Both the position numbers and the translations under genes were made by a program. A DNA stretch of 64,000 nt from Alphaproteobacteria bacterium (GTDB lineage: Bacteria > Pseudomonadota > Alphaproteobacteria > UBA7985), in assembly GCA_965658725.1 (NCBI GenBank), contig CBFHUI010000004.1, positions 2,825 through 66,824 of the forward strand, given 5' to 3'. Below, piece by piece: positions 11,660 through 59,788 of the stretch (positions within the stretch are counted from its first letter, which is position 1; each line of letters starts with the position of its first letter). Under the pieces are notes generated by a model. The model was not told the DNA's origin and did no database searches. It saw only the letters and a list, made by a program, of their open reading frames with translations.

Positions 11660-11828
11660 TTTGAATTATCTGAGATTACGCGAAAAAAGACGTTGAAGCC
11701 TTTGTAAAACTGCGTTATTTCTTCTGGCATTATGCGGCAGTGTCGATTCATTTTTACGACACGCCTTCGATTTTTCAGCCCCGTGTTTGAGTCTCGGGGC
11801 GCGCATTTGATGTTCAGGAGCAGTGCCC

Positions 11829-14570
11829 ATGACGGCGCAGTTAAAGCCCGCTTCACGCTTTGAATCCTACACACCGACGCTTGTCTTCGCCCTGATCATG
11901 ACGGGTGCCTGGCTGGTCGCGGGTTGGTCTTTGTTTGGCTACTACGGCGGCCCGACCGCCTTTGCCAGCCTGAGTCCAGCGGAAGTAGGGCTGGTGATTT
12001 GCGGGGGCTTGCTGCCGCTTATGGCGATCTGGATCCTGTGCGGCATGCTGGTTGTAGGCACGCGCTTGCGCAACTCGATGATGCAGGAGCTTAGCACCCT
12101 GCGCACCGTGAACATCATGCCCGAGGAAACCCAGGCTCACATCAAGTCGATCACCCGCGCCTTTGAAGACCGCGTTGGGCACTTGCAGGGCGTGACCAGC
12201 GGTATTCTGACCTCGCTGGAGTCCGCGACAGGCCAGTTTGAGCGGCAGTCGGATATGCTGGAGGCGCTGTCCTACCGCGTTGATGAGCAGTCGAACACGA
12301 TTTCGACCGCACTGAGCATTCAAGGCAATCAGCTGACCGGGGCCGAAGGACGGATTGACCGCATGGTCAACCGCATGAAGCACGCCATGGAAGACGTCCG
12401 CGATGCGGGCGAGACCTTCCGCGAGAACCTCTCCAAGCCGATCGCTGAAGTCCAAGACACGCTCGCCGACGCGACCGCTTCGATCCATACGCAGATCGAC
12501 GACATCTGGTCCCGGCTGGAGCTGCTCGACGCCGCGCAGGCCGAGACCGAAGAAGCCACGGCCCGGACACGCGCCGCGCTGGAAGCGGAGTCCGAGAACC
12601 TGCGCCACACCGCTGACGAGGCCCTCGCGAATGTAGAGAGCATGTCGCTCAAGCTGACCGGGCAGATTGATTTGCTCAAGACTGTGTCTGACGATGCCAA
12701 CGACGTGGCGGATCAGATGCAGGGCCGGTTGGAAGAGCAGTCCAAGGCGCTGCGGCAGGCGGGCAATGACCTTTCCACCCACGCCAACGAACTGCATCAG
12801 GCGATTCAGGATCAGGCGGCGCACCTCACGCATTTGCAGGAGTCCGTTGATACATACGGCGGCGCGATCTCTGAAGAGTTCGAAAAGAAGATCGAGAAGC
12901 TCATGAATTCGGCACGCGAGGCGGCGGCTATTGTCGGTGAGGAAACAGCACTTGCCACCCGCCGCGCGATCGACGAGCTGTCGGAGAACGGCGACAAGCT
13001 CACCGGCAACATCAGCTTCGTCTCCGAGCGGGTTGAGCAGCTGACCGAAGCGCTCGAAACCGGCGCGGCGACGCTCAAGGAAACCGCGCTCTCGGCCAAG
13101 GCGGCGATGCAGGCCGGGGCTGACGAAGCGGCGAAGACCATGACGGACTCGACCAAGGGCGCAGAGGTTCGCTTTGTCGAGCTCGGCGACGCTTGGGCCG
13201 ATGCGCTGGAGGAGCAATCTTCGCGGCTCGAAAGCTTGCAGGAGATGGCAACCGCGGCTGAAGACAGCACCTTTGCCCGCGCTGAAGAGGCTGTTGTGCA
13301 CCTCGCCGAGCGCCTCGACCATGCGCTGCAGGAACGGTTTGAGGATGAACACGGCGCCTTTAACACCGCGCAACGGCAGATTGATGCTGCGGCACAGCGG
13401 ACCGTGAACAACTACCACCGCTTGGTCGGCAGCTTTGTCGATGATCTGACCAAGAAGGCCGGGGCTGAGATGGAATGTCTCATGACCTGGGGGCAGGAAA
13501 TTCCGCGCGCCGCCGAGCACCTGCGCGAAACAGCGGCTGAGGTTGTTCACTTGATGGACGAGAAGACCAAGGCTCTTCTTACCCGCACCGATGAAGTGCG
13601 CCACGCGACCACGGATGCACTGTCTGCAACGCAAAGCCTGTTCGATGGGATCTCGCAGGGGCCGGAGCGCCTGACGGAGACGGTGACGGCGCTGCGCGAT
13701 GCGTCGTCTTCGGCGGTCGAAGATCTACGCCTGCAAACCGAGACGCTGAACTCCTTGCTGGTGGACAGTCGCAATCGGTTGGTCCGGTTGACTGAGAAGT
13801 TCCATCAGGGCGTCAACGACGACGCGGTTGACTCTCGTCTCATGCGTTTGGCCGAGGCGATCGAAGCGGGTGAAGGCGCGCTGCGTCAGGCGGCGTCTGC
13901 GTTTGACGATACGACCCATCAGGCGGCTGAGTCCGCGCATTCGGCGGCAGGCCGTTTGCTCGAAACCTCTCGCCTTGTCGGCGCGCAAGTTGAGATGCTG
14001 CGGGATATGACCACCAACACGGAAAGCGCCAACAACCTGCGGCGTGTGACCGATCAGGCTGACGAGCTGCGGGTGATCCTTGAACAAATCGGGGTCGCGG
14101 CGGAGAACCACCAGCTGACGCTGGTCCGCGTGACGGAGGAGGCTAAGAGCCAGTCGGAAAAGCTGCTCCAGACGGTGAAGCACTCCGAGCGAGATGCCTT
14201 CCTCAACGAAGCGTCATCCATGGTTGAGGCTCTGCACCAGGCGGCGATTGACGTTGACACCATCCTCGACGGTGATCTGCCGGGCGATGTGGTGATGGCG
14301 ATCAATGCGGGTGACCGAGGCGTGTCTGTCCGCCGCCTGCTCAGCCGCTACACTCCTGCAGGCGCTGCGGCCATGGCGGACCTTTATGCCCGCGACCGGG
14401 CCTTTACGGCACAGGTGGACCGCTACTTGGAAACCTTCGACAGCCTGCTCGAACAGGCCAACCGCGTGGACCGGTCCAAGCTGCTGCACACGACCTTCCT
14501 GACCGCAGACATTGGCAAGCTTTACGTCTTCCTTGCACGGTCGATCGGGGTGATGCAGGCCGCCGAGTAG
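11829..14570 (+). CDS. Membrane-anchored long helical protein, TipN/GPR(RgsE)-like polar scaffold
   Basis: Two N-terminal TM helices, about 750 aa A/E/L/T/Q-rich helical region, C-terminal LYARDRAFTAQVDRYLETFDSLL...FLTADIGKLYVFLARSIG resembling the conserved end of alphaproteobacterial polar landmark proteins. Confidence 0.65.
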   Translation: MTAQLKPASRFESYTPTLVFALIMTGAWLVAGWSLFGYYGGPTAFASLSPAEVGLVICGGLLPLMAIWILCGMLVVGTRLRNSMMQELSTLRTVNIMPEETQAHIKSITRAFEDRVGHLQGVTSGILTSLESATGQFERQSDMLEALSYRVDEQSNTISTALSIQGNQLTGAEGRIDRMVNRMKHAMEDVRDAGETFRENLSKPIAEVQDTLADATASIHTQIDDIWSRLELLDAAQAETEEATARTRAALEAESENLRHTADEALANVESMSLKLTGQIDLLKTVSDDANDVADQMQGRLEEQSKALRQAGNDLSTHANELHQAIQDQAAHLTHLQESVDTYGGAISEEFEKKIEKLMNSAREAAAIVGEETALATRRAIDELSENGDKLTGNISFVSERVEQLTEALETGAATLKETALSAKAAMQAGADEAAKTMTDSTKGAEVRFVELGDAWADALEEQSSRLESLQEMATAAEDSTFARAEEAVVHLAERLDHALQERFEDEHGAFNTAQRQIDAAAQRTVNNYHRLVGSFVDDLTKKAGAEMECLMTWGQEIPRAAEHLRETAAEVVHLMDEKTKALLTRTDEVRHATTDALSATQSLFDGISQGPERLTETVTALRDASSSAVEDLRLQTETLNSLLVDSRNRLVRLTEKFHQGVNDDAVDSRLMRLAEAIEAGEGALRQAASAFDDTTHQAAESAHSAAGRLLETSRLVGAQVEMLRDMTTNTESANNLRRVTDQADELRVILEQIGVAAENHQLTLVRVTEEAKSQSEKLLQTVKHSERDAFLNEASSMVEALHQAAIDVDTILDGDLPGDVVMAINAGDRGVSVRRLLSRYTPAGAAAMADLYARDRAFTAQVDRYLETFDSLLEQANRVDRSKLLHTTFLTADIGKLYVFLARSIGVMQAAE

Positions 14571-14667: not shown

Positions 14668-15237
14668 CTACTGGCCGCGCGACACAGCTTGCATGATGTA
14701 ACTGGCGGAACCCGGGCGGGCATAGACTTCGGGGAAGCCTTCCGCGCTGTACGCAGGCGCGGCGTAGCCCATGGGCCTCGCGCTGGGAACGCCGTAACCG
14801 GGCAGGCCAGAGGTATCGTGCACCACCATGACGTTCGAACCGTAGCCCTGCATCTGATCGGCGGCGGCGACTTGCCCCTGATAGGACAGGATCGACTGCG
14901 CCTGCTCAGCGTAAGTCGCGCTGTCCTGCATGCTGTATCCATGGCCGTGGCCAGAGACGTGGGCCGAGCCGTAACCGGCCGATACCGCAGGCGCGGCGTA
15001 CTGGACGTGGGGCGCGTACGTGGGCTGGGCGGCATAACCGGTCTTGGTATAGGCTTGGTGCGTGTTGGCTGCTGCAACGTGCGCGTTGCCGCCGTATGAG
15101 AAGGTCACAATCGACCCTGCTGGAGCGGGCGCGTAGCCGGTTTTTGAGTAGCTGTAGGATTGGGCTTGGGCAGTTTGTACAGCGAAGACCCCGGCGATCA
15201 GCGCCGCCGGGATGATCAAATATTATAAGGTCCGCAT
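14668..15237 (-). CDS. Secreted Tyr/Ala/Gly-rich low-complexity protein B; in-frame TAA at codon 5 (or alternative TTG start at 15219)
   Basis: ATG CGG ACC TTA TAA TAT TTG ATC ATC CCG = MRTL*YLIIPAALIAGVFAVQTAQA; mature part has YxKTGYA twice and YAAP/YAP repeats. Confidence 0.7.
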
Positions 15238-15323: not shown

Positions 15324-15339
15324 TGCAATGGTAGGGCCA
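15324..15339 (-). promoter_or_regulatory. sigma54 promoter of protein B gene
   Basis: Minus strand TGGCCCTACCATTGCA: GG-N10-GC with TGGC and TTGCA. Confidence 0.65.
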
Positions 15340-15459: not shown

Positions 15460-15999
15460 TTACTGAGTCGGAATAATTTGCGGGTAGGACGCAGATTGGG
15501 CCGGCTGAGCATAGGGGTTCGCCGCTGGCTGAGCTTGCGGGTAGCCCTGCGCGAGTGCCTGCGGAGCAACCTGCTGCTGGCCATACTGAATGACCTGCTG
15601 TTGCTGTTGCTGCTGGACCATCGCCCCTTCAACGCCGCTCACCACAGGCAGAACAGCGGCTTCATACACCACCGGCTTTTGCGTGGTGTAAACCTGCTGC
15701 ACTGGCAACTGAACAGGCTGTTGGTAGTAGGTGAAGGTCTGCGGCGCGTAGACCGGAATGCGGGCCTTGCTGTAGACCGCAGGCGCGCCGCCGGTCGCGG
15801 CGTAGCCGGTGCCGTGGGCAGACGGCATGTGATAGCCTTGGCCCTGGTGCGTGAAGTTCACCACGCTGTTGGGGTTGATCGCAACCTGGGGCGCGTAGCC
15901 GGTCTTGTTGTAGACCATGGGAGCCTGAAATTGTGCGGAGGCCACAGTCGGTGCGATCATCAGAGCACCGAGGCCTGCAAGCAGAAGAGAACGTAACAT
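15460..15999 (-). CDS. Secreted Gln/Tyr/Pro-rich low-complexity protein A (paralog of B)
   Basis: AGGAA Shine-Dalgarno; signal peptide MLRSLLLAGLGALMIAPTVASA; YNKTGYAP...SVVNF; Q7 tract; no Cys/Trp/Asp. Confidence 0.8.
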   Translation of the reverse strand: MLRSLLLAGLGALMIAPTVASAQFQAPMVYNKTGYAPQVAINPNSVVNFTHQGQGYHMPSAHGTGYAATGGAPAVYSKARIPVYAPQTFTYYQQPVQLPVQQVYTTQKPVVYEAAVLPVVSGVEGAMVQQQQQQQVIQYGQQQVAPQALAQGYPQAQPAANPYAQPAQSASYPQIIPTQ

Positions 16000-16050: not shown

Positions 16051-16066
16051 CGCAAACGCGATACCA
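16051..16066 (-). promoter_or_regulatory. sigma54 promoter of protein A gene
   Basis: Minus strand TGGTATCGCGTTTGCG: GG-N10-GC with TTGC; predicted TSS about 41 nt before the ATG. Confidence 0.6.
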
Positions 16067-27298: not shown

Positions 27299-27910
27299 CT
27301 ATGAAGCCGCCTCGGCGACCGGTGTGCGGGGCGCGGCCATGACGCTGAGCAGCGCATGGTCGGCCTTTATTGTCTTCGCCATTCCGGCGTCGGTAACGCC
27401 GGAACAGACTGCTGTTGCGCGACCCAGGGCCTGAGCCAGGATCTGCGCGGTTTCGCTTCGCAAGACTGCGGTTGCCGTGTCCTCTGCGATCCGGATCATC
27501 GGATCGAGCGTATTCGGACTGCCATCGGAGGCCAGAACCAGCAGCCGCAGCTTGCCTTGTCTGAGCTTGTCCTTGGTCTTTTCAGTCCCCACAACCAGCG
27601 CCCCCGAACGGCGCGCTAACCCCAGTCGATCCAGCATGATCTGCCGGATCTGTGTTTCTACCCGTACCGCCAAATCTGCAGGCACAGACGCCTCAGTTTT
27701 GGCAGAACGCGCAAAAGCGTTCTTCTTGACCGCAGTCTCTAGCACATCCCGTCGGGGAATTAACCAGATTCCACGGCCCGGCAGACGCTTGCCCATGTCA
27801 AAGGTCACTTGACCCGCAGGATCGAGGACAAAGCGCAGCATGTCGCTGCGGTCTGCGCTCTCTCCTGTAACGGCGCATTTGCGCTGCGGGTCTTTCTTGC
27901 TCATGGGCAT
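27299..27910 (-). CDS. YlxR/DUF448 RNA-binding protein with L7Ae-like C-terminal domain
   Basis: RKCAVTG, RFVLDPAGQV..D...LPGRGIW; LGLARRSG..V.G; located between nusA and infB. Confidence 0.85.
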   Translation of the reverse strand: MPMSKKDPQRKCAVTGESADRSDMLRFVLDPAGQVTFDMGKRLPGRGIWLIPRRDVLETAVKKNAFARSAKTEASVPADLAVRVETQIRQIMLDRLGLARRSGALVVGTEKTKDKLRQGKLRLLVLASDGSPNTLDPMIRIAEDTATAVLRSETAQILAQALGRATAVCSGVTDAGMAKTIKADHALLSVMAAPRTPVAEAAS

Positions 27911-27941
27911 GTGTGCGTCTTTTCAGCTGGTTCTCCCTGCC

Positions 27942-29465
27942 TTACTCGTCAAACCAGTGCGCGCGCGCTGCCATGACGATCTCGTTGGCCTTCTCCTCGG
28001 TCATTTCGTGCGCAACCAGCAGCTCGGCGAGTTCGTCGCCGGCCAGATCACCCACGTCGTCGAGGGTCTTGATATTGTTGTTGCCGAGGATGACCATCAT
28101 CGACGGGGTCAGGCCGTCGAGCGCGGCGACTTCGTCGGTCACGCCCATCTGCTTGCGCTCCTCATCGCGGCGGTCTTCTTCCTGTGCCAGCCAGTCGCGC
28201 GCACGGTTGCGCAGCTCTTCGCCGATTTCCTCGTCAAAGCCTTCGATCGCGGCCAGCTCTTCGACCGGGACAAAAGCAATCTCGTCCACCGCCGTGAAAC
28301 CTTCGGCAACCAGCAGGTGTGCGATGACGTCTTCCACGTCCAGCGCCTGAACAAACAGGCCCGAACGCTGGTTGAACTCTTCCTGACGCCGGCCCGATTC
28401 TTCCTCATCGGTCAGAATGTCGATCTCCAGCCCCGTCAGCATGGACGCCAGCCGTACGTTCTGCCCGCGTCGGCCAATGGCCAGCGACAGCTGATCGTCT
28501 GGAACCACCACTTCGATCCGGCCTGCTTCTTCGTCGAGAACAACCTTGGTCACCTCTGCTGGAGCGAGCGCGTTTACCACGTAAGTCGCGATGTCTTCAG
28601 ACCATGGAATGATGTCGATCTTCTCGCCTTGAAGCTCACCGACAACCGCCTGTACTCGGCTGCCGCGCATACCGACACAGGCACCGACCGGGTCGATGTT
28701 CACTTCGTGGCTCAGCACCGCGATTTTAGCGCGGGAGCCGGGGTCGCGGGCGACAGATTTGATCTCGATCAGACCATCGTAAATCTCTGGCACTTCCATG
28801 GAGAACAGCTTCGCCATGAAGATTGGGTGCGTGCGGGAGAGGAAGATTTGCGGGCCGCGGGTTTCTTCGCGCACATCGTAGATATAGGCACGGATGCGGT
28901 CGCCGACCTTTGGCTTTTCCCGCTGGATCAGCTCATCCCGGCGCAAGATCGCTTCCGAGCGGCCCAGATCGACGTACACGTTGCCGTATTCAACGCGCTT
29001 GACCAGACCGGTGATGATCTCGCCCTTGCGGTCCTTGAACTCGTCGTACTGCTTTTTGCGCTCAGCAAAGCGCACTTCCTGCACGATCACCTGCTTGGCC
29101 GACTGCGCCGCAATCCGTCCCAGGTCGATAGGAGGCAGTTCTTCGGTCAGGAAGTCGCCCACGACCAGCGCCTCATCCGAGAGGTGCGCGTCACGCAAGG
29201 TGATTTGCGTCATGTCATCTTCGACTTCTTCACGCGTCTCAACCACTTCGCGGTACCGGTGCAGGCTGATCTGCCCGTTCTTGCGGTCAATCGCGGCGCG
29301 GATGTCGTGATCGACACCGTACTTCTGACGGCCGGCGCGCTGAATCGCCTTTTCCATGGCTTCGAGCACTTCATCGCGCTCGATGCCTTTCTCGCGCGCG
29401 ACCATGTCGGCCATCTGGATCAGTTCCAGCCGTGGGGTGGCGGTTGTTTGGACCACGTTATCCAT
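27942..29465 (-). CDS. nusA: Transcription termination/antitermination factor NusA
   Basis: AREKGI, RIAAQSAKQVI, ARDPGSRAKIAV, GACVGMRGSRVQ, AIGRRGQNVRLA. Confidence 0.98.
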   Translation of the reverse strand: MDNVVQTTATPRLELIQMADMVAREKGIERDEVLEAMEKAIQRAGRQKYGVDHDIRAAIDRKNGQISLHRYREVVETREEVEDDMTQITLRDAHLSDEALVVGDFLTEELPPIDLGRIAAQSAKQVIVQEVRFAERKKQYDEFKDRKGEIITGLVKRVEYGNVYVDLGRSEAILRRDELIQREKPKVGDRIRAYIYDVREETRGPQIFLSRTHPIFMAKLFSMEVPEIYDGLIEIKSVARDPGSRAKIAVLSHEVNIDPVGACVGMRGSRVQAVVGELQGEKIDIIPWSEDIATYVVNALAPAEVTKVVLDEEAGRIEVVVPDDQLSLAIGRRGQNVRLASMLTGLEIDILTDEEESGRRQEEFNQRSGLFVQALDVEDVIAHLLVAEGFTAVDEIAFVPVEELAAIEGFDEEIGEELRNRARDWLAQEEDRRDEERKQMGVTDEVAALDGLTPSMMVILGNNNIKTLDDVGDLAGDELAELLVAHEMTEEKANEIVMAARAHWFDE

Positions 29466-29476
29466 CGATGTATTCC

Positions 29477-30049
29477 TCAGCTTTCCGGCGCAGTGCCGGT
29501 CTTAGGGTCAAGTGCGTCAGCCAGGGTGACTGGCTTGGGTAAGGTGCCATTCTTGGCGGCGTCAAACAGGGCATCGGTCGCGATCAGCTTGGCCTTGGCC
29601 AAATCGGAAAAGGGCAGCAGCGCGTCCCCGTTCTCGGTGTCGATTCGAACCGCTTCACCCTCAACCCCGCCCAGCACGCCGGAGAACCGACGGCGGCCTT
29701 CGATCAGGAAGCGGGTTTCAATCTTGGCTTCGTACCCCTTGAACCGCTCAAAATCCGCAAGCCGGGTCAGCGGCCGGTCAACGCCAGCGGAGCTGACTTC
29801 CAGCGTGAAAGACTCCGCGATCGGGTCTTCCACGTCCAGCAGCGCCGACAGCGCACGCGAGATTTCCTCACAGTGCTCCACGGTCATCAGGTCGCCGTTG
29901 GACGGCTCGGCCATCAGCTGCAGGCGCGGGTTCTGCGACCCGATTAGCAGCAGGCGCACGAGATCAAAGCCCATGGCTTCCAGCATGGAAACAATGTCGT
30001 CTTCAATCCGGGCCAAAGGACCAACGGGGCGCTCGAGGCGTTCCATCAT
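29477..30049 (-). CDS. rimP: Ribosome maturation factor RimP
   Basis: GFDLVR, LQLMAE, CEEISRALSALLDVEDPI, LEVSSAGVDRPL. Confidence 0.95.
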   Translation of the reverse strand: MMERLERPVGPLARIEDDIVSMLEAMGFDLVRLLLIGSQNPRLQLMAEPSNGDLMTVEHCEEISRALSALLDVEDPIAESFTLEVSSAGVDRPLTRLADFERFKGYEAKIETRFLIEGRRRFSGVLGGVEGEAVRIDTENGDALLPFSDLAKAKLIATDALFDAAKNGTLPKPVTLADALDPKTGTAPES

Positions 30050-30076
30050 TCAGCGGCAATCAAAGAAGGGGTTACG

Positions 30077-30106
30077 AAAACAAAAAAGCGAGCCGGCGGC
30101 CCGCTT
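30077..30106 (-). terminator. Terminator/attenuator just upstream of rimP
   Basis: Minus strand AAGCGGGCC-GCC-GGCTCGCTT followed by TTTTGTTTT, ending 27 nt before the rimP ATG. Confidence 0.75.
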
Positions 30107-30168
30107 GTTTCCAAGGGCATCACATGAAGCTTTAGAAGTTCACGGGCCGTCTGACGCCTTACATAGGA

Positions 30169-30915
30169 TCAATCGGGCACGCGCTCAAGGCTTAAATACA
30201 GGGGCTTACGTCCTTCCCGCACTGCTTTTGCCTCATAGCGGGTCCGGGGCCAGTCTTCCGTGCGCACCCGCCAGTCGTCCGCCGACTGCGCCAGCCAGCG
30301 GAACTTGGGGTGCGCCAAGGCGATCCGAGTCATCCACGGCTGATAGTCGGCGTGGTCGGTCGCAAGCCGCAGCAGGCCGCCGGGACGGATGGCGCGGGCG
30401 AGCGCGTCCATCATGCTCGGCTGGATGATCCGTCGCTCCCAATGGCGGCGCTTCGGCCAAGGGTCAGGGTGCAGAATAAAGGCACGCTCAACGCTGCCTT
30501 CCGGAACCCCTTCCACCAGCACACGCCCGTCGCCGTGCATGATCCGTACATTGCTCAGGTCGTGATCGTGGATATGCCGTACGGCAGAGGCGACCCCGTT
30601 CAGGAAGAACTCGGCGCCAATCAGCCGCACATCCGGGTTGGCTTCAGCCTGCCAGGCCAGGTGCTCACCCGCGCCGATACCCACTTCGAGCCAGAGCCGC
30701 TCAGGCGCATTGCCGAACAGCGCCGGCAGGTCCACGCGGCCCTCATTATCGGGGATGCAGGCAATCTCTGGCAGGACATCGGTCATCATCCGCGCCAGCT
30801 TCGGCTTGAGCGGACGACCGGACAGGCGGCCCCACAGGTGCAGGATGCCGTCTTTGGCTGTGCTGTCCTTGCCGCGGTAGGGTTGGAAGTCGGTGGAAGA
30901 GGGAGGCTTTGACAT
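30169..30915 (-). CDS. trmB: tRNA (guanine-N7)-methyltransferase
   Basis: LEVGIGAGEHL, IGAEFF, HPDPWPKRRHWERRI, LATDHADY, TRYEAKA. Confidence 0.94.
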   Translation of the reverse strand: MSKPPSSTDFQPYRGKDSTAKDGILHLWGRLSGRPLKPKLARMMTDVLPEIACIPDNEGRVDLPALFGNAPERLWLEVGIGAGEHLAWQAEANPDVRLIGAEFFLNGVASAVRHIHDHDLSNVRIMHGDGRVLVEGVPEGSVERAFILHPDPWPKRRHWERRIIQPSMMDALARAIRPGGLLRLATDHADYQPWMTRIALAHPKFRWLAQSADDWRVRTEDWPRTRYEAKAVREGRKPLYLSLERVPD

Positions 30916-43841: not shown

Positions 43842-44549
43842 TTACATGGCGAGGCGGTAGCCGCCGGGTTCCGTCACCAGGATGGAGTTCTGCTGCGGGT
43901 CCGGCTCGATCTTCTGCCGCAGACGATAGACGTGGGTTTCCAACGTGTGCGTGTTCACACCCGCGTTGTAGCCCCAAACTTCGTCGAGCAGCGTATCCCG
44001 CGACACCACCTTGCCGCCCGCGCGGTAAAGAAACTTCAGGATCGCCGTTTCCTTTTCGGTCAGGCGGATCTTGCGGTCGTTCTCGTTGTTGGTGAGCATT
44101 TTTGCAGCCGGGTGGAAACCGTAAGGCCCGACGTTAAACACCGCATCATCGGATTGCTCGTGCGTGCGCAGCTGGGCGCGCAGGCGGGCCATGAAGACGT
44201 TGAAGCGGAAGGGCTTAGTGATGTAGTCGTTCGCGCCCGCATCAAGCCCAAGAATGGCGTCCGCGTCACTGTCTTGCCCGGTCAGCATGATGATCGGCGC
44301 CTTCAGCCCCCGACGGCGCATCAGCTTGCACAGGTCGCGCCCATCCATGTCCGGCAGGCCCACGTCGAGGACGATGGCGTCGAAGTGGTCGGCGTCTGCG
44401 AGCTTCATGGCTTCCGAGCCGTTCTCTGCCTCGCTCACCGCATACTCTTCATGGAACCCCAGTTGCTCGGCGAGGGTCTCCCGCAAGGTCGGGTCGTCAT
44501 CGACCAGCAGGATGCGGCGGCGGTTGGCGTCGTGGCTGAGGCTTGTCAT
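43842..44549 (-). CDS. cenR: OmpR-family response regulator, CenR/OtpR-like
   Basis: ILLVDDD..LRETLAEQL..HEEY, LDVGLPDMDGR, GANDYITKPF, KIRLTEKETAILKFLYRAG, THTLETHVYRLRQKIE; lolA-xth neighbourhood. Confidence 0.72.
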   Translation of the reverse strand: MTSLSHDANRRRILLVDDDPTLRETLAEQLGFHEEYAVSEAENGSEAMKLADADHFDAIVLDVGLPDMDGRDLCKLMRRRGLKAPIIMLTGQDSDADAILGLDAGANDYITKPFRFNVFMARLRAQLRTHEQSDDAVFNVGPYGFHPAAKMLTNNENDRKIRLTEKETAILKFLYRAGGKVVSRDTLLDEVWGYNAGVNTHTLETHVYRLRQKIEPDPQQNSILVTEPGGYRLAM

Positions 44550-44687
44550 CAAAAGGCTCCTTTGAACAGGCGCGTTGGTTCTGGACCTTATGTTAGCCGC
44601 ACACGCAGTCGTGTCATCAGCTCACAGAGCCATGTTGAGACTTTGTGAGGATTTGTCAAATTGACGTGAGGAAGAAAGCGTTTTTAA

Positions 44688-56971: not shown

Positions 56972-57337
56972 ATGGCTGAATCTCATCGTCAACAGCGTGT
57001 AGCGGAACGTATCCGCAAAATCCTGTCCGCAGAACTGGCGAAAAGCAACTTCTCAGATGCCGTGCTCGACCGGCAACCCATCACCATCACCCATGTTGAT
57101 CCCTCTCCCGACTTGCGTCATGCGAAGGTCTTTTTCACCGCTTTGGGGGGTGTGGCGCTGGTGCCGGTCAAGGATCTCAAGGATGCACTGACCCGGCAAA
57201 AGACCGCGTTGCAGTCGGCGCTGGGTCGGCAATTGACCATGAAGTTCACGCCAAAGCTTACGTTTGTCCCTGACGATGCCTTTGACAAAGCCGATCACAT
57301 GAACCGGCTCATCCATGGTTTGCCACAAGCGAACTGA
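56972..57337 (+). CDS. rbfA: Ribosome-binding factor A
   Basis: AGGAGG SD; RQQRVAERIR, ITITHV..SPDLRHAKVF, MKFTPKLTFV.D. Confidence 0.88.
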   Translation: MAESHRQQRVAERIRKILSAELAKSNFSDAVLDRQPITITHVDPSPDLRHAKVFFTALGGVALVPVKDLKDALTRQKTALQSALGRQLTMKFTPKLTFVPDDAFDKADHMNRLIHGLPQAN

Positions 57338-57812
57338 TCGCCTTCGCAGTCTGGGAAAGTCCGGCTCGGCGCAGGTCGTCGGGGTGGTGGTCTGGGCTCT
57401 GCAGCGCTGTCGCATGGGCCGCGAAGAAAGCGTCGATACTCACTCGATCCAGCCCAAGCGGTCTTAACTGCCGCAGGGGAAAGTCGCGGGCGTTGCTGGT
57501 AACAATCAAGCTGGCGTCAGCACTCAGCGCCGCTTCGATCACATGCAGATCGCCGGGATCGCGGAAGCCGTTGGCGGAGAGCGGGAGCGGGGCGGGTGTG
57601 ACGATGCTGGCCTGAAACTGGGTCAGAAAAACCTCAGCATCGGGCATGGCTCGAGCGGTGAGAACGGCGCGGAGCTCCTCGACGGTGCGCGTGGACCAGA
57701 GCGGCTGAATCGTGCCTGTCCGAGCAAGATCGGCAATCAACGCCCGCACTCGAAAACGAAAAAGCGCGTTGGTGTCGAACACAACGCGCTTTGAGGTGGG
57801 TGAGGATGCCAC
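57309..57812 (-). CDS. PIN-domain protein (PIN_3-like)
   Basis: VVFDTNAL, WS....EEL, DPGDLHVIEAA, IVTSNARDFP. Confidence 0.8.
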   Translation of the reverse strand: MASSPTSKRVVFDTNALFRFRVRALIADLARTGTIQPLWSTRTVEELRAVLTARAMPDAEVFLTQFQASIVTPAPLPLSANGFRDPGDLHVIEAALSADASLIVTSNARDFPLRQLRPLGLDRVSIDAFFAAHATALQSPDHHPDDLRRAGLSQTAKAISSLVANHG

Positions 57813-57826
57813 GGAAAGGCGGCTTC

Positions 57827-59464
57827 TTAGCTCTTGGACTCGAGCGTTTCCCAGTGCTGACGCTTGCGGTAGATCGTTGAAGCAGAGATCCCAAGCAGTG
57901 CGGCTGCTTTCGGGATGTTACCACCACAGGACTCGATGGCGTCCTCGATGGCCTGCTTCTCTGTTTCCCACAGGGGCAGAATGCCTTCAGCACGCCGCCG
58001 GATTGGCGCGCCTTCACCAGCAGCAGCCGGGTTGACGATGCCCTCAATCGGGGCAGTGGAGCGCGGAGACAGCGGGTTGGGCGTGCTGGTCGTCGCGCGC
58101 AGGGCTTCTGCGGCGAGGTTCTCGGCCAGCGGACTAGCGGGTGCGGACGGCACGCTGTTCTGCGGAGGAGCCACGGAGACCGGGGATGCGCCGCCTTGGT
58201 TGGGTAGAGCGGTCGGCGCGCCAGCGGTGAACATGGCGGGTGGGGTATGCGCGTGAACACCCGGAACGCGGCCCGGGCCAGACCCTGCCGGGTTTACGGG
58301 TGCTGGCACCATATCGGCTGTTACCTGCTCACCCTTGTTCAGGACGACGATGTTACGGATAACGTTCTGCAGCTGGCGGACGTTGCCCGGCCAAGGATAG
58401 TTCAGGAACATGCGGGAGACTTCGGGGTCGAAATCGCGGAAGCGCTTGTTCTCTTCAGCAGCAAACTCCACCAGAATCTTGCGGGCAATGTCGAGCGTAT
58501 CGCCCTCACGCGCGCGCAGCGGTGGCAGGTGGATCGGAATGACGTGCAGGCGGTAGTAGAGGTCTTCGCGGAAGCGGCCTTCGCCGATTTCCACCAGCGG
58601 ATCGCGGTTGGTGGCGCAGATGAAGCGGATATCAACCTTCTGCTGCTTGGTTCCACCGACTTTGGTGAAGGTGCCGGTCTGGATAAAGCGCAGCAGCTTG
58701 GACTGCAGGTGCAGGTCCATTTCGCAGACTTCGTCGAGGAACAGCGTACCGCCCTCCGCCTGCGAGGCCGCGCCTTCGTGATCGCTGATCGCGCCGGTAA
58801 AGGCGCCTTTCACGTGACCGAAGATTTCGGATTCCATCAGGTCTTTCGGGATCGCTGCACAGTTCAGCACGACAAGCGGCTTTTTCGCGCGCGGGGAAAG
58901 ACGATGGATGGCTTCGGCCGTGACTTCTTTACCTGTACCAGACTCGCCGGTGATGAAGGTTGTGGCCTTGGACGGCGCGGCGGATTCCACCATGCGGTAG
59001 ATGACCTGCATGGCCTTGGACTTGCCAATGAAGCCCTGAAAGCCCTTGGTCGAGACCGGCTTGGGGTTGGCGATGACCTGCTGCTTGATGCTCTCGCGCT
59101 TCAAAGCGGCGGTGAGCGTCTGGACGAGGCGCTGTCGGTTGAACGGCTTGACGAGGAAGTCGTACGCCCCGCCGCGCATGGTCTCGACCGCCATGTTGAT
59201 CGAGCCGTGAGCCGTAATCATGATGACGGCGGAGTTGAGGCCGCGCTCCTGGATAAAGTCGAGGATCTCCGTGCCGTTCATATCGGGCAGACGAACGTCC
59301 AGCAAAATGACGTCGGGTTCATCGTTGGAGAGATGCTTGAGCGCTTCCTTGCCACTGCTGGCGTGCGTGATGTCGAGCGGCTCCTCTTTCAGATATTCCT
59401 TATACAGGGAAACCAGAGGCTGCTCATCTTCAACAAGCAAAACTTTAAAGCGTTGTGCGCTCAT
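57827..59464 (-). CDS. sigma54-dependent response regulator (REC-AAA+-Fis HTH), LuxO-like
   Basis: VED, LLDVRLPDM, TAHGS, QGFIG, GESGTGKE, GAFTGA, FLDEVCEMDLHLQSKLLRFIQTGTF, WPGNVRQLQN, ILPLWETEKQAIEDAI..C.GNIPKAA. Confidence 0.9.
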   Translation of the reverse strand: MSAQRFKVLLVEDEQPLVSLYKEYLKEEPLDITHASSGKEALKHLSNDEPDVILLDVRLPDMNGTEILDFIQERGLNSAVIMITAHGSINMAVETMRGGAYDFLVKPFNRQRLVQTLTAALKRESIKQQVIANPKPVSTKGFQGFIGKSKAMQVIYRMVESAAPSKATTFITGESGTGKEVTAEAIHRLSPRAKKPLVVLNCAAIPKDLMESEIFGHVKGAFTGAISDHEGAASQAEGGTLFLDEVCEMDLHLQSKLLRFIQTGTFTKVGGTKQQKVDIRFICATNRDPLVEIGEGRFREDLYYRLHVIPIHLPPLRAREGDTLDIARKILVEFAAEENKRFRDFDPEVSRMFLNYPWPGNVRQLQNVIRNIVVLNKGEQVTADMVPAPVNPAGSGPGRVPGVHAHTPPAMFTAGAPTALPNQGGASPVSVAPPQNSVPSAPASPLAENLAAEALRATTSTPNPLSPRSTAPIEGIVNPAAAGEGAPIRRRAEGILPLWETEKQAIEDAIESCGGNIPKAAALLGISASTIYRKRQHWETLESKS

Positions 59465-59607
59465 CAATATCAAATCCCATGCCAAAGCGTAGGCAATAAC
59501 AATTTACGGCTAAACAATATGCGACGTTGTAATTCTCGATCTAAGTACGCTGCGAAAACCACTGAAATCAAGGATTTTTTTCGGTTTTGACGCAATTCGT
59601 TTGATCG

Positions 59608-59620
59608 CTGCATTTTGCAA
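59608..59620. promoter_or_regulatory. LuxO-box-like palindrome
   Basis: CTGCA-TTT-TGCAA, one mismatch to the Vibrio LuxO site TTGCA-W3-TGCAA, 144 nt upstream of the LuxO-like ATG. Confidence 0.5.
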
Positions 59621-59724
59621 ACATCAGCGCAAAGCGAAAAATCGCTCGGGTGCCGTTTGGCCAATAAGCCAGATTTCCACCGACTTATCCACAAAAAAAC
59701 TCCCTATTTACGGGGGTAGAAGTC

Positions 59725-59755
59725 AAAAAAAGGGCGTCCTAATTGGACGCCCTTT
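59725..59755. terminator. Intrinsic terminator (BI-1 gene; possibly bidirectional)
   Basis: AAAAAAAGGGCGTCC-TAATT-GGACGCCCTTT, perfect 11-bp stem. Confidence 0.88.
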
Positions 59756-59788
59756 GTGCTCAAGTCTGAGACCTGATCAAGCTGGAGC

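Follow-up and report, generated by a model that had tools for sequence, protein, structure and literature searches.

We identified, in a 64,000-nucleotide stretch of DNA from an uncultured marine alphaproteobacterium (contig CBFHUI010000004.1 of assembly GCA_965658725.1; this whole 64-kb stretch is hereafter the window), a gene at 57827..59464 on the minus strand that encodes a LuxO-like sigma-54 enhancer-binding response regulator of 545 amino acids. The protein is a sigma-54 activator of the LuxO subfamily but is not the quorum-sensing LuxO of Vibrio, as indicated by its profile score and by the genomic context that accompanies LuxO, namely luxU, qrr and the autoinducer receptors, all of which are absent from the window. 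We consider it probable, if far from assured, that the protein is an orphan regulator at the end of a phosphorelay whose genes lie elsewhere, that it is autoinhibited in the manner of LuxO, and that it binds upstream of its own gene.

In a comparison with 18,950 NCBIfam models, the top match was the Vibrio LuxO equivalog NF041946, at 630.4 bits in two stretches. Lower scores were obtained with NtrC (388 bits), AtoC (375), PrsR (357; model TIGR02915, whose cut-off of 502.6 is not reached), ZraR (333), NtrX (308) and Caulobacter FlbD (293). The regulator nevertheless falls short of the curated LuxO equivalog cut-off of 800 bits, which a bona fide LuxO from Enterovibrio passes at 829 bits. Among structures in the PDB, the LuxO of Photobacterium angustum (5EP0) scored 480 bits versus 330 bits for NtrC1. 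Over the receiver and AAA+ domains, the protein is 58% identical both to P. angustum LuxO and to an Enterovibrio LuxO cluster (P0005, whose member P0165 carries the NCBI name LuxO and is the 829-bit sequence), as compared with 43% for NtrC1. Judged by sequence, the protein groups with LuxO and not with NtrC, NtrX, FlbD, AtoC, ZraR, GlrR or PrsR. The initial annotation had allowed that it might instead belong to another clade of bacterial enhancer-binding proteins, and the margin of about 240 bits in favour of the LuxO model argues against this.

The gene is read as an open reading frame (ORF) from an ATG; an alternative in-frame TTG start at 59485 would add seven residues (552 amino acids), and the identical 545-residue product is found in public gene calls on three contigs, including one from the NCBI metagenome-assembled genome (MAG) GCA_049612585.1. 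Its layout of receiver, sigma-54-interacting AAA+ ATPase and Fis-type helix-turn-helix (HTH) is that of Vibrionaceae LuxO (V. cholerae, V. harveyi and P. angustum). The receiver spans residues 8-117 (59114..59443, on the minus strand like all features of this gene; Pfam Response_reg, 1.1e-29) and contains the phospho-acceptor Asp56 (codon 59297-59299), which aligns with the LuxO aspartate and is an aspartate in 200 of 232 aligned homologues. A linker delimited by alignments to 5EP0 and NtrC1 (residues 126-145, 59030..59089), which ends in KGFQGF, leads into the AAA+ domain (residues 146-312, 58529..59029; Pfam Sigma54_activat, 6.4e-67), whose GAFTGA loop was located intact in the translation (residues 220-225, 58790-58807), and this is followed by an AAA+ lid (residues 317-391, 58292..58516; Pfam AAA_lid_14). 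The HTH (residues 498-536, 57857..57973; Pfam HTH_8, 2.1e-14) has the LuxO-like helices PLWETEKQAIEDAI ... ISASTIYRK, closely resembles the LuxO HTH in alignments with Enterovibrio LuxO and other family members, and shares with it a very similar recognition helix (STIYRK). Between the lid and the HTH, the translation contains a Pro/Ala-rich spacer of about 104 residues (57980..58291) that is far longer than the spacer of Vibrionaceae LuxO and opposite which Enterovibrio LuxO, aligned pairwise, shows a gap of 68 residues; the lengths of the proteins of close relatives, 546-575 amino acids, indicate that the spacer is retained there.

The initial annotation had likened the protein to LuxO by motifs beyond the generic ones of the NtrC family. 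All of the strings that it quoted occur in the translation, including FITGESGTGKE, FQGFIGKS in the receiver-ATPase linker, NCAAIPKDLMESEIFGHVKGAFTGA, FLDEVCEMDLHLQSKLLRFIQTGTFTKVG, GNVRQLQNVIRNIVVLNKG and PLWETEKQAIEDAIESCGGNIPKAA, and the likeness was borne out by the profile scores and identities given above and by a conserved linker glycine. NtrC, NtrX and the Aquifex aeolicus proteins NtrC1 and NtrC4 share the three-domain layout and the AAA+ fold (target-normalised TM-score of the C domain 0.88-0.93). NtrC1 differs in having a glutamate at the position of this glycine and another recognition helix; its off-state is due to its dimer arrangement rather than to the linker.

In unphosphorylated LuxO, linker residues 137-142 occupy the ATP site, and a linker glycine (Gly141 in V. 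angustum, Gly145 in V. cholerae) is present in all LuxO proteins, is specific to LuxO and is replaced by glutamate in NtrC1 (Boyaci et al., PMC4878744). The corresponding residue of the window protein is Gly144 (codon 59033-59035), whose FQGFIG motif aligns with YQGFIG in LuxO, whereas NtrC1 reads E-E-Y-V-F with its glutamate at that position. Also kept are V. angustum His84, the role of which is described in the same study (His86 here, within TAHGS), and the linker-contact residues Arg316 (Arg319) and Gln363 (Gln366). In an AlphaFold model of residues 1-395 (mean predicted local distance difference test score 95.5, predicted TM-score 0.87), the C domain superposes by Foldseek on the LuxO catalytic domain 5EP3 with a target-normalised TM-score of 0.95 and a root-mean-square deviation (rmsd) of 1.2 Å. 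The linker motif (F/Y)-x-G-F-(I/V)-G is found in 161 of the 232 aligned homologues, from both Alpha- and Gammaproteobacteria. With the glycine kept in about 70% of the family, linker-mediated autoinhibition may be a general feature of the LuxO-like subfamily. Such a spread runs against the published prediction that only LuxO and SypG carry this regulatory linker (PMC10162802).

A LuxO-like gene in an alphaproteobacterium is no rarity. In a library of 1.8 billion proteins, each of the 150 best representatives of clusters at 50% identity outscored NtrC1, which puts the number of such clusters at 150 or more. Alphaproteobacterial homologues of 45-62% identity are found in the Rhodospirillales, Hyphomicrobiales and Kordiimonadales; Nitrospirillum, Azospirillum, Kiloniellaceae, Minwuia, Kordiimonadales, Stappia, Pseudovibrio and Beijerinckiaceae are among their sources, while gammaproteobacterial homologues in the same range occur in Shewanella benthica, Aeromonas molluscorum, Celerinatantimonas and Neptunomonas. 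The homologues tested against the LuxO model scored 574-666 bits, the band of the query, with values of 664 for Aeromonas, 666 for Celerinatantimonas and 645 for Rhodospirillales, and with Nitrospirillum in the same band. A subset from Rhodospirillales, Kordiimonadales, Minwuia, Aeromonas, S. benthica and Celerinatantimonas (loci L010-L080) is 55-62% identical to the window protein, scores 614-666 bits and has the same linker motif and HTH; literature searches returned no characterised function for these regulators, nor any characterised alphaproteobacterial member. LuxO-like regulators are therefore common in Alpha- and Gammaproteobacteria and are already labelled as such by machine: a member of the query's 90% cluster is named "two-component system repressor protein LuxO" in IMG. 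Taken alone, the window gene is an ordinary, recognisable LuxO-like regulator to which annotation pipelines already attach that name.

To define the immediate relatives of the window gene, we scanned for homologues in one genome per species, and the resulting close clade comprises the window and nine relatives (10 loci). The relatives are marine MAGs, labelled Alphaproteobacteria, "Geminicoccus sp." or Rhodospirillaceae, whose proteins are 80-92% identical to the query. Around the regulator, all have the order dxs - tlyA - rumA - Bax-inhibitor-1 (BI-1) gene - regulator - rbfA - MFS gene - cobT - cobS - dnaJ-like gene. This order is conserved in what is a family-level clade of marine alphaproteobacterial MAGs, which points to the regulator as a stable orphan in this lineage. 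Recent horizontal transfer was considered and rejected as unlikely, since the GC content at third codon positions (0.75) equals the level of the neighbouring genes and the gene order is fixed in the nine relatives.

The genes that surround more distant homologues suggest how such an orphan might be supplied with phosphate. A phosphorelay component (hybrid kinase, Hpt protein or small receiver) is encoded no more than two genes away at 29 of 65 distant homologue loci, as against none of the 10 close-clade loci, whose neighbourhood is instead a fixed set of housekeeping genes. Among the 29 linked loci, 21 have a kinase of 800-1330 amino acids, 14 of these with a C-terminal Hpt motif, and four encode a small Hpt protein, about 115 amino acids in length. 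Neighbour proteins representing three loci were checked by Pfam: the S. benthica kinase has the architecture HAMP-PAS-HisKA-HATPase-REC-Hpt, and the small proteins of L024 and L053 are Hpt or REC proteins. Hpt and receiver genes adjoin the two regulators most similar to the query outside its clade (L019 and L024, 62% identity), and in Celerinatantimonas the regulator gene is followed by an Hpt gene in the same orientation, an arrangement like that of luxO and luxU in Vibrio. Many of the linked modules in the L010-L080 set, whether Hpt-fused hybrid kinases or small Hpt and receiver proteins, have sigma-54-type promoters. In the Rhodospirillales loci L010, L019 and L024 such promoters lie 27-45 bp upstream of the receiver-Hpt operon beside the LuxO-like gene, and in S. 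benthica (L013, L016 and L017) they precede an operon of binding-protein, kinase and regulator genes, which suggests that in these loci the regulator feeds back on its own signalling module. In S. benthica the promoters are located ahead of two genes that diverge from each other, one encoding a binding protein of the phosphonate type and the other an RsbU-like receiver-PP2C phosphatase. Six further loci belong to Nitrospirillum (L015, L020, L026, L050, L052 and L060); two of these, L020 and L060, have a weak sigma-54-like site after the LuxO-like gene and, 177 bp beyond it, a gene whose product is about 216-219 amino acids long and, as read from its sequence, resembles a double cold-shock-domain protein; it is a possible direct target in that genus.

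We then examined the control region of the window gene, aligning the upstream regions of the 10 close-clade loci. The upstream neighbour, a BI-1 family gene, ends in a strong intrinsic terminator (59729..59755, minus strand; found by terminator scan and conserved in relatives) that isolates it from the regulator's own control region, and four conserved blocks lie downstream of this terminator. The first is the 9-mer TGTGGATAA (59685-59693), which reads TTATCCACA as its reverse complement on the plus strand and is conserved in nine of the 10 loci; the exception, L008, has TGTGAATAA, and the surroundings of the 9-mer are not conserved. We take TTATCCACA to be the E. coli DnaA-box consensus 9-mer, and control of the regulator gene could thus be DnaA-dependent, that is, linked to the cell cycle. 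The second block, a candidate autoregulatory site, is a palindrome (59608..59620) that lies 155 nt before the ATG. Its sequence is TTGCAAAATGCAG in the window, whereas five relatives have TTGCAAAATGCAT and the other four ATGCAGATTGCAT or ATGCAGTTTGCAT, such that the TGCA-N3-TGCA core is unchanged in all 10 loci while the flanks and spacer vary. The palindrome matches the enhancer consensus of Vibrio LuxO, TTGCAWWWTGCAA, at 12 of 13 positions; in Vibrio, qrr diverges from luxO and has a sigma-54 promoter and two such enhancers (PMC10162802). The third block, TTGATT-N18-TACTTA (59542..59571, minus strand), is conserved in the 10 loci and may be a housekeeping-type promoter; a strict consensus promoter scan did not call it, and the assignment is drawn from conservation. 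The fourth consists of a conserved leader and ribosome-binding region. The sequence TGGCATGGGATTTGA directly before the ATG was considered as a sigma-54 promoter and rejected, as it has no -12 GC and is likelier to be part of the ribosome-binding region. LuxO is known to bind its own promoter region in Vibrio, and together with the 12/13 match and the LuxO-like HTH this makes autoregulation the simplest reading of the palindrome.

In the reading that we favour, the protein would act as the last step of a His-Asp-His-Asp phosphorelay. Its Asp56 would take phosphate from an Hpt domain encoded elsewhere, whether in a small protein like LuxU or at the C-terminal end of a hybrid kinase. As in LuxO, the ATPase of the unphosphorylated protein would be kept off by the receiver and by the linker around Gly144; phosphorylation would free it, and the active oligomer, bound to TTGCA-N3-TGCAA-like enhancers, would remodel sigma-54 RNA polymerase at target promoters outside the window. 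The protein would also regulate itself by binding the TGCA-N3-TGCA palindrome, which is located about 80 bp before the presumed promoter of its gene. What the sequences show directly is the domain architecture, Asp56, the GAFTGA loop, the LuxO-type HTH, the linker motif (F/Y)-x-G-F-I-G and the conserved gene order of the clade; the Hpt donor and the LuxO-type autoinhibition are deduced from the Hpt linkage and the linker glycine of the wider family, in which the promoters ahead of neighbouring receiver-Hpt and binding-protein/kinase operons speak for sigma-54 dependence. The signal that reaches the regulator need not be an autoinducer.

Several observations weigh against this reading. A bootstrapped neighbour-joining tree built from 198 sequences gave 100% support to the query clade and 75% to its union with P0001, whereas support along the backbone was only 0-2% and that for the split between the LuxO-like supergroup and NtrC1 only 45%. 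The placement with LuxO is therefore based on profile scores and identities. Three interface residues of V. angustum LuxO are changed in the window protein, with Asp325 for Glu322, Arg328 for His325 and Val332 for Gly329; Enterovibrio LuxO also departs from V. angustum at the His325 and Gly329 positions, so that these two are not universal within LuxO. The overall fit of the whole AlphaFold chain to 5EP0 (TM-score 0.60, rmsd 18.6 Å) is no better than that to NtrC1, and by this measure the modelled domain arrangement matches neither NtrC1 nor the autoinhibited packing of LuxO, where the linker fills the ATP site and both lobes of the ATPase are contacted by the receiver. Only one 12/13 box lies upstream of the gene, with no adjoining sigma-54 promoter; TGCA-N3-TGCA cores are not above chance in the 64 kb (three found versus 1.6 expected), and the palindrome is upstream of none of 70 more distant homologues. 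The case for the palindrome accordingly draws on its conservation within the clade. Finally, we identified neither a partner kinase or Hpt protein nor a target promoter for this lineage.

A broader proposition concerns LuxO-type control, with a linker that plugs the ATPase until the receiver is phosphorylated by an Hpt protein: it could be ancestral to a large and unstudied family of sigma-54 activators that are fed by phosphorelays. The orphan copy of this marine alphaproteobacterial lineage would then integrate several unlinked hybrid kinases and drive sigma-54-dependent small RNAs or other genes through LuxO-type enhancers. We regard this as improbable; were it true, circuits in the style of LuxO and Qrr would exist outside the gammaproteobacteria, and the linker plug would not be a speciality of the Vibrionaceae.

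Of the alternatives to an orphan phosphorelay regulator with LuxO-like autoinhibition, the one that fares best, though still unlikely, is a lineage-specific regulator of development, the cell cycle or surface polysaccharide, comparable to Caulobacter TacA, Vibrio SypG or the PEP-CTERM regulator PrsR, with a regulon unrelated to that of LuxO. TacA is, like LuxO, a sigma-54 activator that receives its input from a hybrid kinase by way of an Hpt protein (ShkA-ShpA-TacA), and it has a C-terminal Ala-Gly ClpXP degron (PMC7010744); the window protein ends in LESKS rather than Ala-Gly. SypG of Vibrio fischeri, a LuxO paralogue, activates both the syp polysaccharide locus and qrr1, and by published description it is a LuxO-like enhancer-binding protein with the regulatory linker and HTH of LuxO and a regulon beyond classical quorum sensing (PMC10162802). 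Homologues of 45-47% identity from Pseudovibrio, Beijerinckiaceae and Hyphomicrobiales lie beside what seem, from sequence reading, to be genes for a chain-length determinant, a sugar transferase and glycosyltransferases, and both the conserved, perfect DnaA-box-like 9-mer and the embedding of the gene among housekeeping genes would suit a developmental role. On the other side, the PrsR and FlbD models score far below that of LuxO, and the sypG gene is located inside its polysaccharide cluster, whereas no polysaccharide genes lie near the window regulator, whose neighbours are dxs, tlyA, rumA, the BI-1 gene, rbfA, an MFS transporter gene, cobT and cobS.

It is unlikely that the regulator activates a pair of sigma-54-driven genes in the window, which the initial annotation put forward as its target. 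These are two paralogous genes for small, secreted, Gln/Tyr/Ala-rich proteins with no Pfam match (14668-15219 and 15460-15999, both on the minus strand). Upstream of them are the window's only intergenic sigma-54-type promoters, TGGCCCTACCATTGC at 15325-15339 and TGGTATCGCGTTTGC at 16052-16066. Both promoters, with one lineage excepted, and the order gpsA-sec1-sec2 followed by a coiled-coil protein gene are conserved in relatives (L084-L093); the window encodes a single GAFTGA protein, and the relative MAG JBMTIF has both loci, its regulator being 91% identical. However, the two loci are 42 kb apart, and the conserved elements upstream of the secreted pair are CGCATAA/TTATGCG half-sites, a 7-mer that occurs five times in the window, four of them in the intergenic DNA of the 11.7-16.2 kb interval. 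Neither promoter has a TGCA-N3-TGCA or TTGCA-N3-TGCAA-like site upstream of it, leaving sigma-54 as the sole link, and the remainder of the genome, with its other enhancer-binding proteins, lies outside the 64 kb seen. The pair needs some enhancer-binding protein, but a specific tie to this regulator is unsupported.

Some further features of the secreted pair were apparent. A weak likeness between CGCATA in the leader of the regulator gene and CGCATAA was not counted as a common motif. In L090 and L091, the -24 GG is changed to GA at the first promoter and the -12 GC to AC at the second, the rest being conserved; these core changes could reflect loss or rewiring of sigma-54 control. A fourth CGCATAA copy (11730-11736) lies in the 163-bp intergenic region before the gene for a 915-amino-acid coiled-coil membrane protein (11823-14570) with weak apolipoprotein-like matches, a position that suggests a single small regulon made up of this gene and the secreted pair.

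Least likely of all is that the protein is a functional orthologue of quorum-sensing LuxO, through which autoinducer-responsive hybrid kinases and a LuxU-like protein would drive sigma-54-dependent Qrr-like small RNAs that repress a HapR/LuxR-type master regulator: its identity to Vibrionaceae LuxO over the receiver and ATPase exceeds the 47-48% reported between LuxO and SypG (full-length alignments, PMC10162802), and the linker glycine, the HTH, the near-consensus LuxO box and the IMG name all fit, but the score is below the equivalog cut-off, luxU is not downstream, neither a sigma-54 promoter nor an RNA gene diverges from the regulator gene, and the 64 kb encode no autoinducer synthase, kinase or TetR-type regulator. 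The regulators related to it, moreover, adjoin PAS-domain hybrid kinases, substrate-binding proteins, RsbU-like phosphatases or polysaccharide genes, and not known quorum-sensing receptors; in other lineages the place of the LuxO context is taken by PAS-domain hybrid kinases with a fused Hpt, by small Hpt-plus-receiver pairs or by polysaccharide genes. As the case of SypG indicates (PMC10162802), a LuxO-like sequence does not imply quorum sensing, and a "LuxO" label outside the Vibrionaceae is no evidence for it.

The surroundings of the gene agree with its status as an orphan. At the position of Vibrio luxU is a gene for a 167-amino-acid PIN_3 domain protein by Pfam (57309-57812, minus strand), which rules out this downstream ORF as a divergent LuxU. 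Outside the window it occurs solely in the MAG contig that carries the identical regulator and is missing from the nine relatives, which points to a recent insertion. The gene begins 14 nt past the end of the regulator gene and shares 29 nt with the 3' end of rbfA, which is convergent with it, and no antitoxin-like ORF is evident beside it. No sigma-54 consensus is present in the 303-bp upstream region (59486-59788). Rfam and consensus scans detected no qrr-like RNA, divergent qrr gene or sigma-54 promoter beside the regulator, and no Rfam family, Qrr included, was matched. Within the 64 kb we likewise found no histidine kinase, Hpt motif in any frame, second GAFTGA protein or RpoN box. The initial annotation was thus correct that no luxU, sensor kinase or autoinducer gene is adjacent, and its view of a LuxO-type switch whose inputs and outputs are not evident locally extends to the whole window. 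The sole other response regulator is of the OmpR type (43842-44552), and the remaining annotated genes are housekeeping genes, including atpC, pyrD, gpsA, tgt, queA, infB, lnt, ybeY, phoH, tsaB, nfu, lolA, xthA, accA, xerD, aroK, aroB, bolA, cobS, cobT, rbfA, rumA, tlyA and dxs. The interval between infB and lnt also contains an 862-amino-acid ORF (27840-30428, plus strand) with high third-position GC and no Pfam match at E <= 1e-6.

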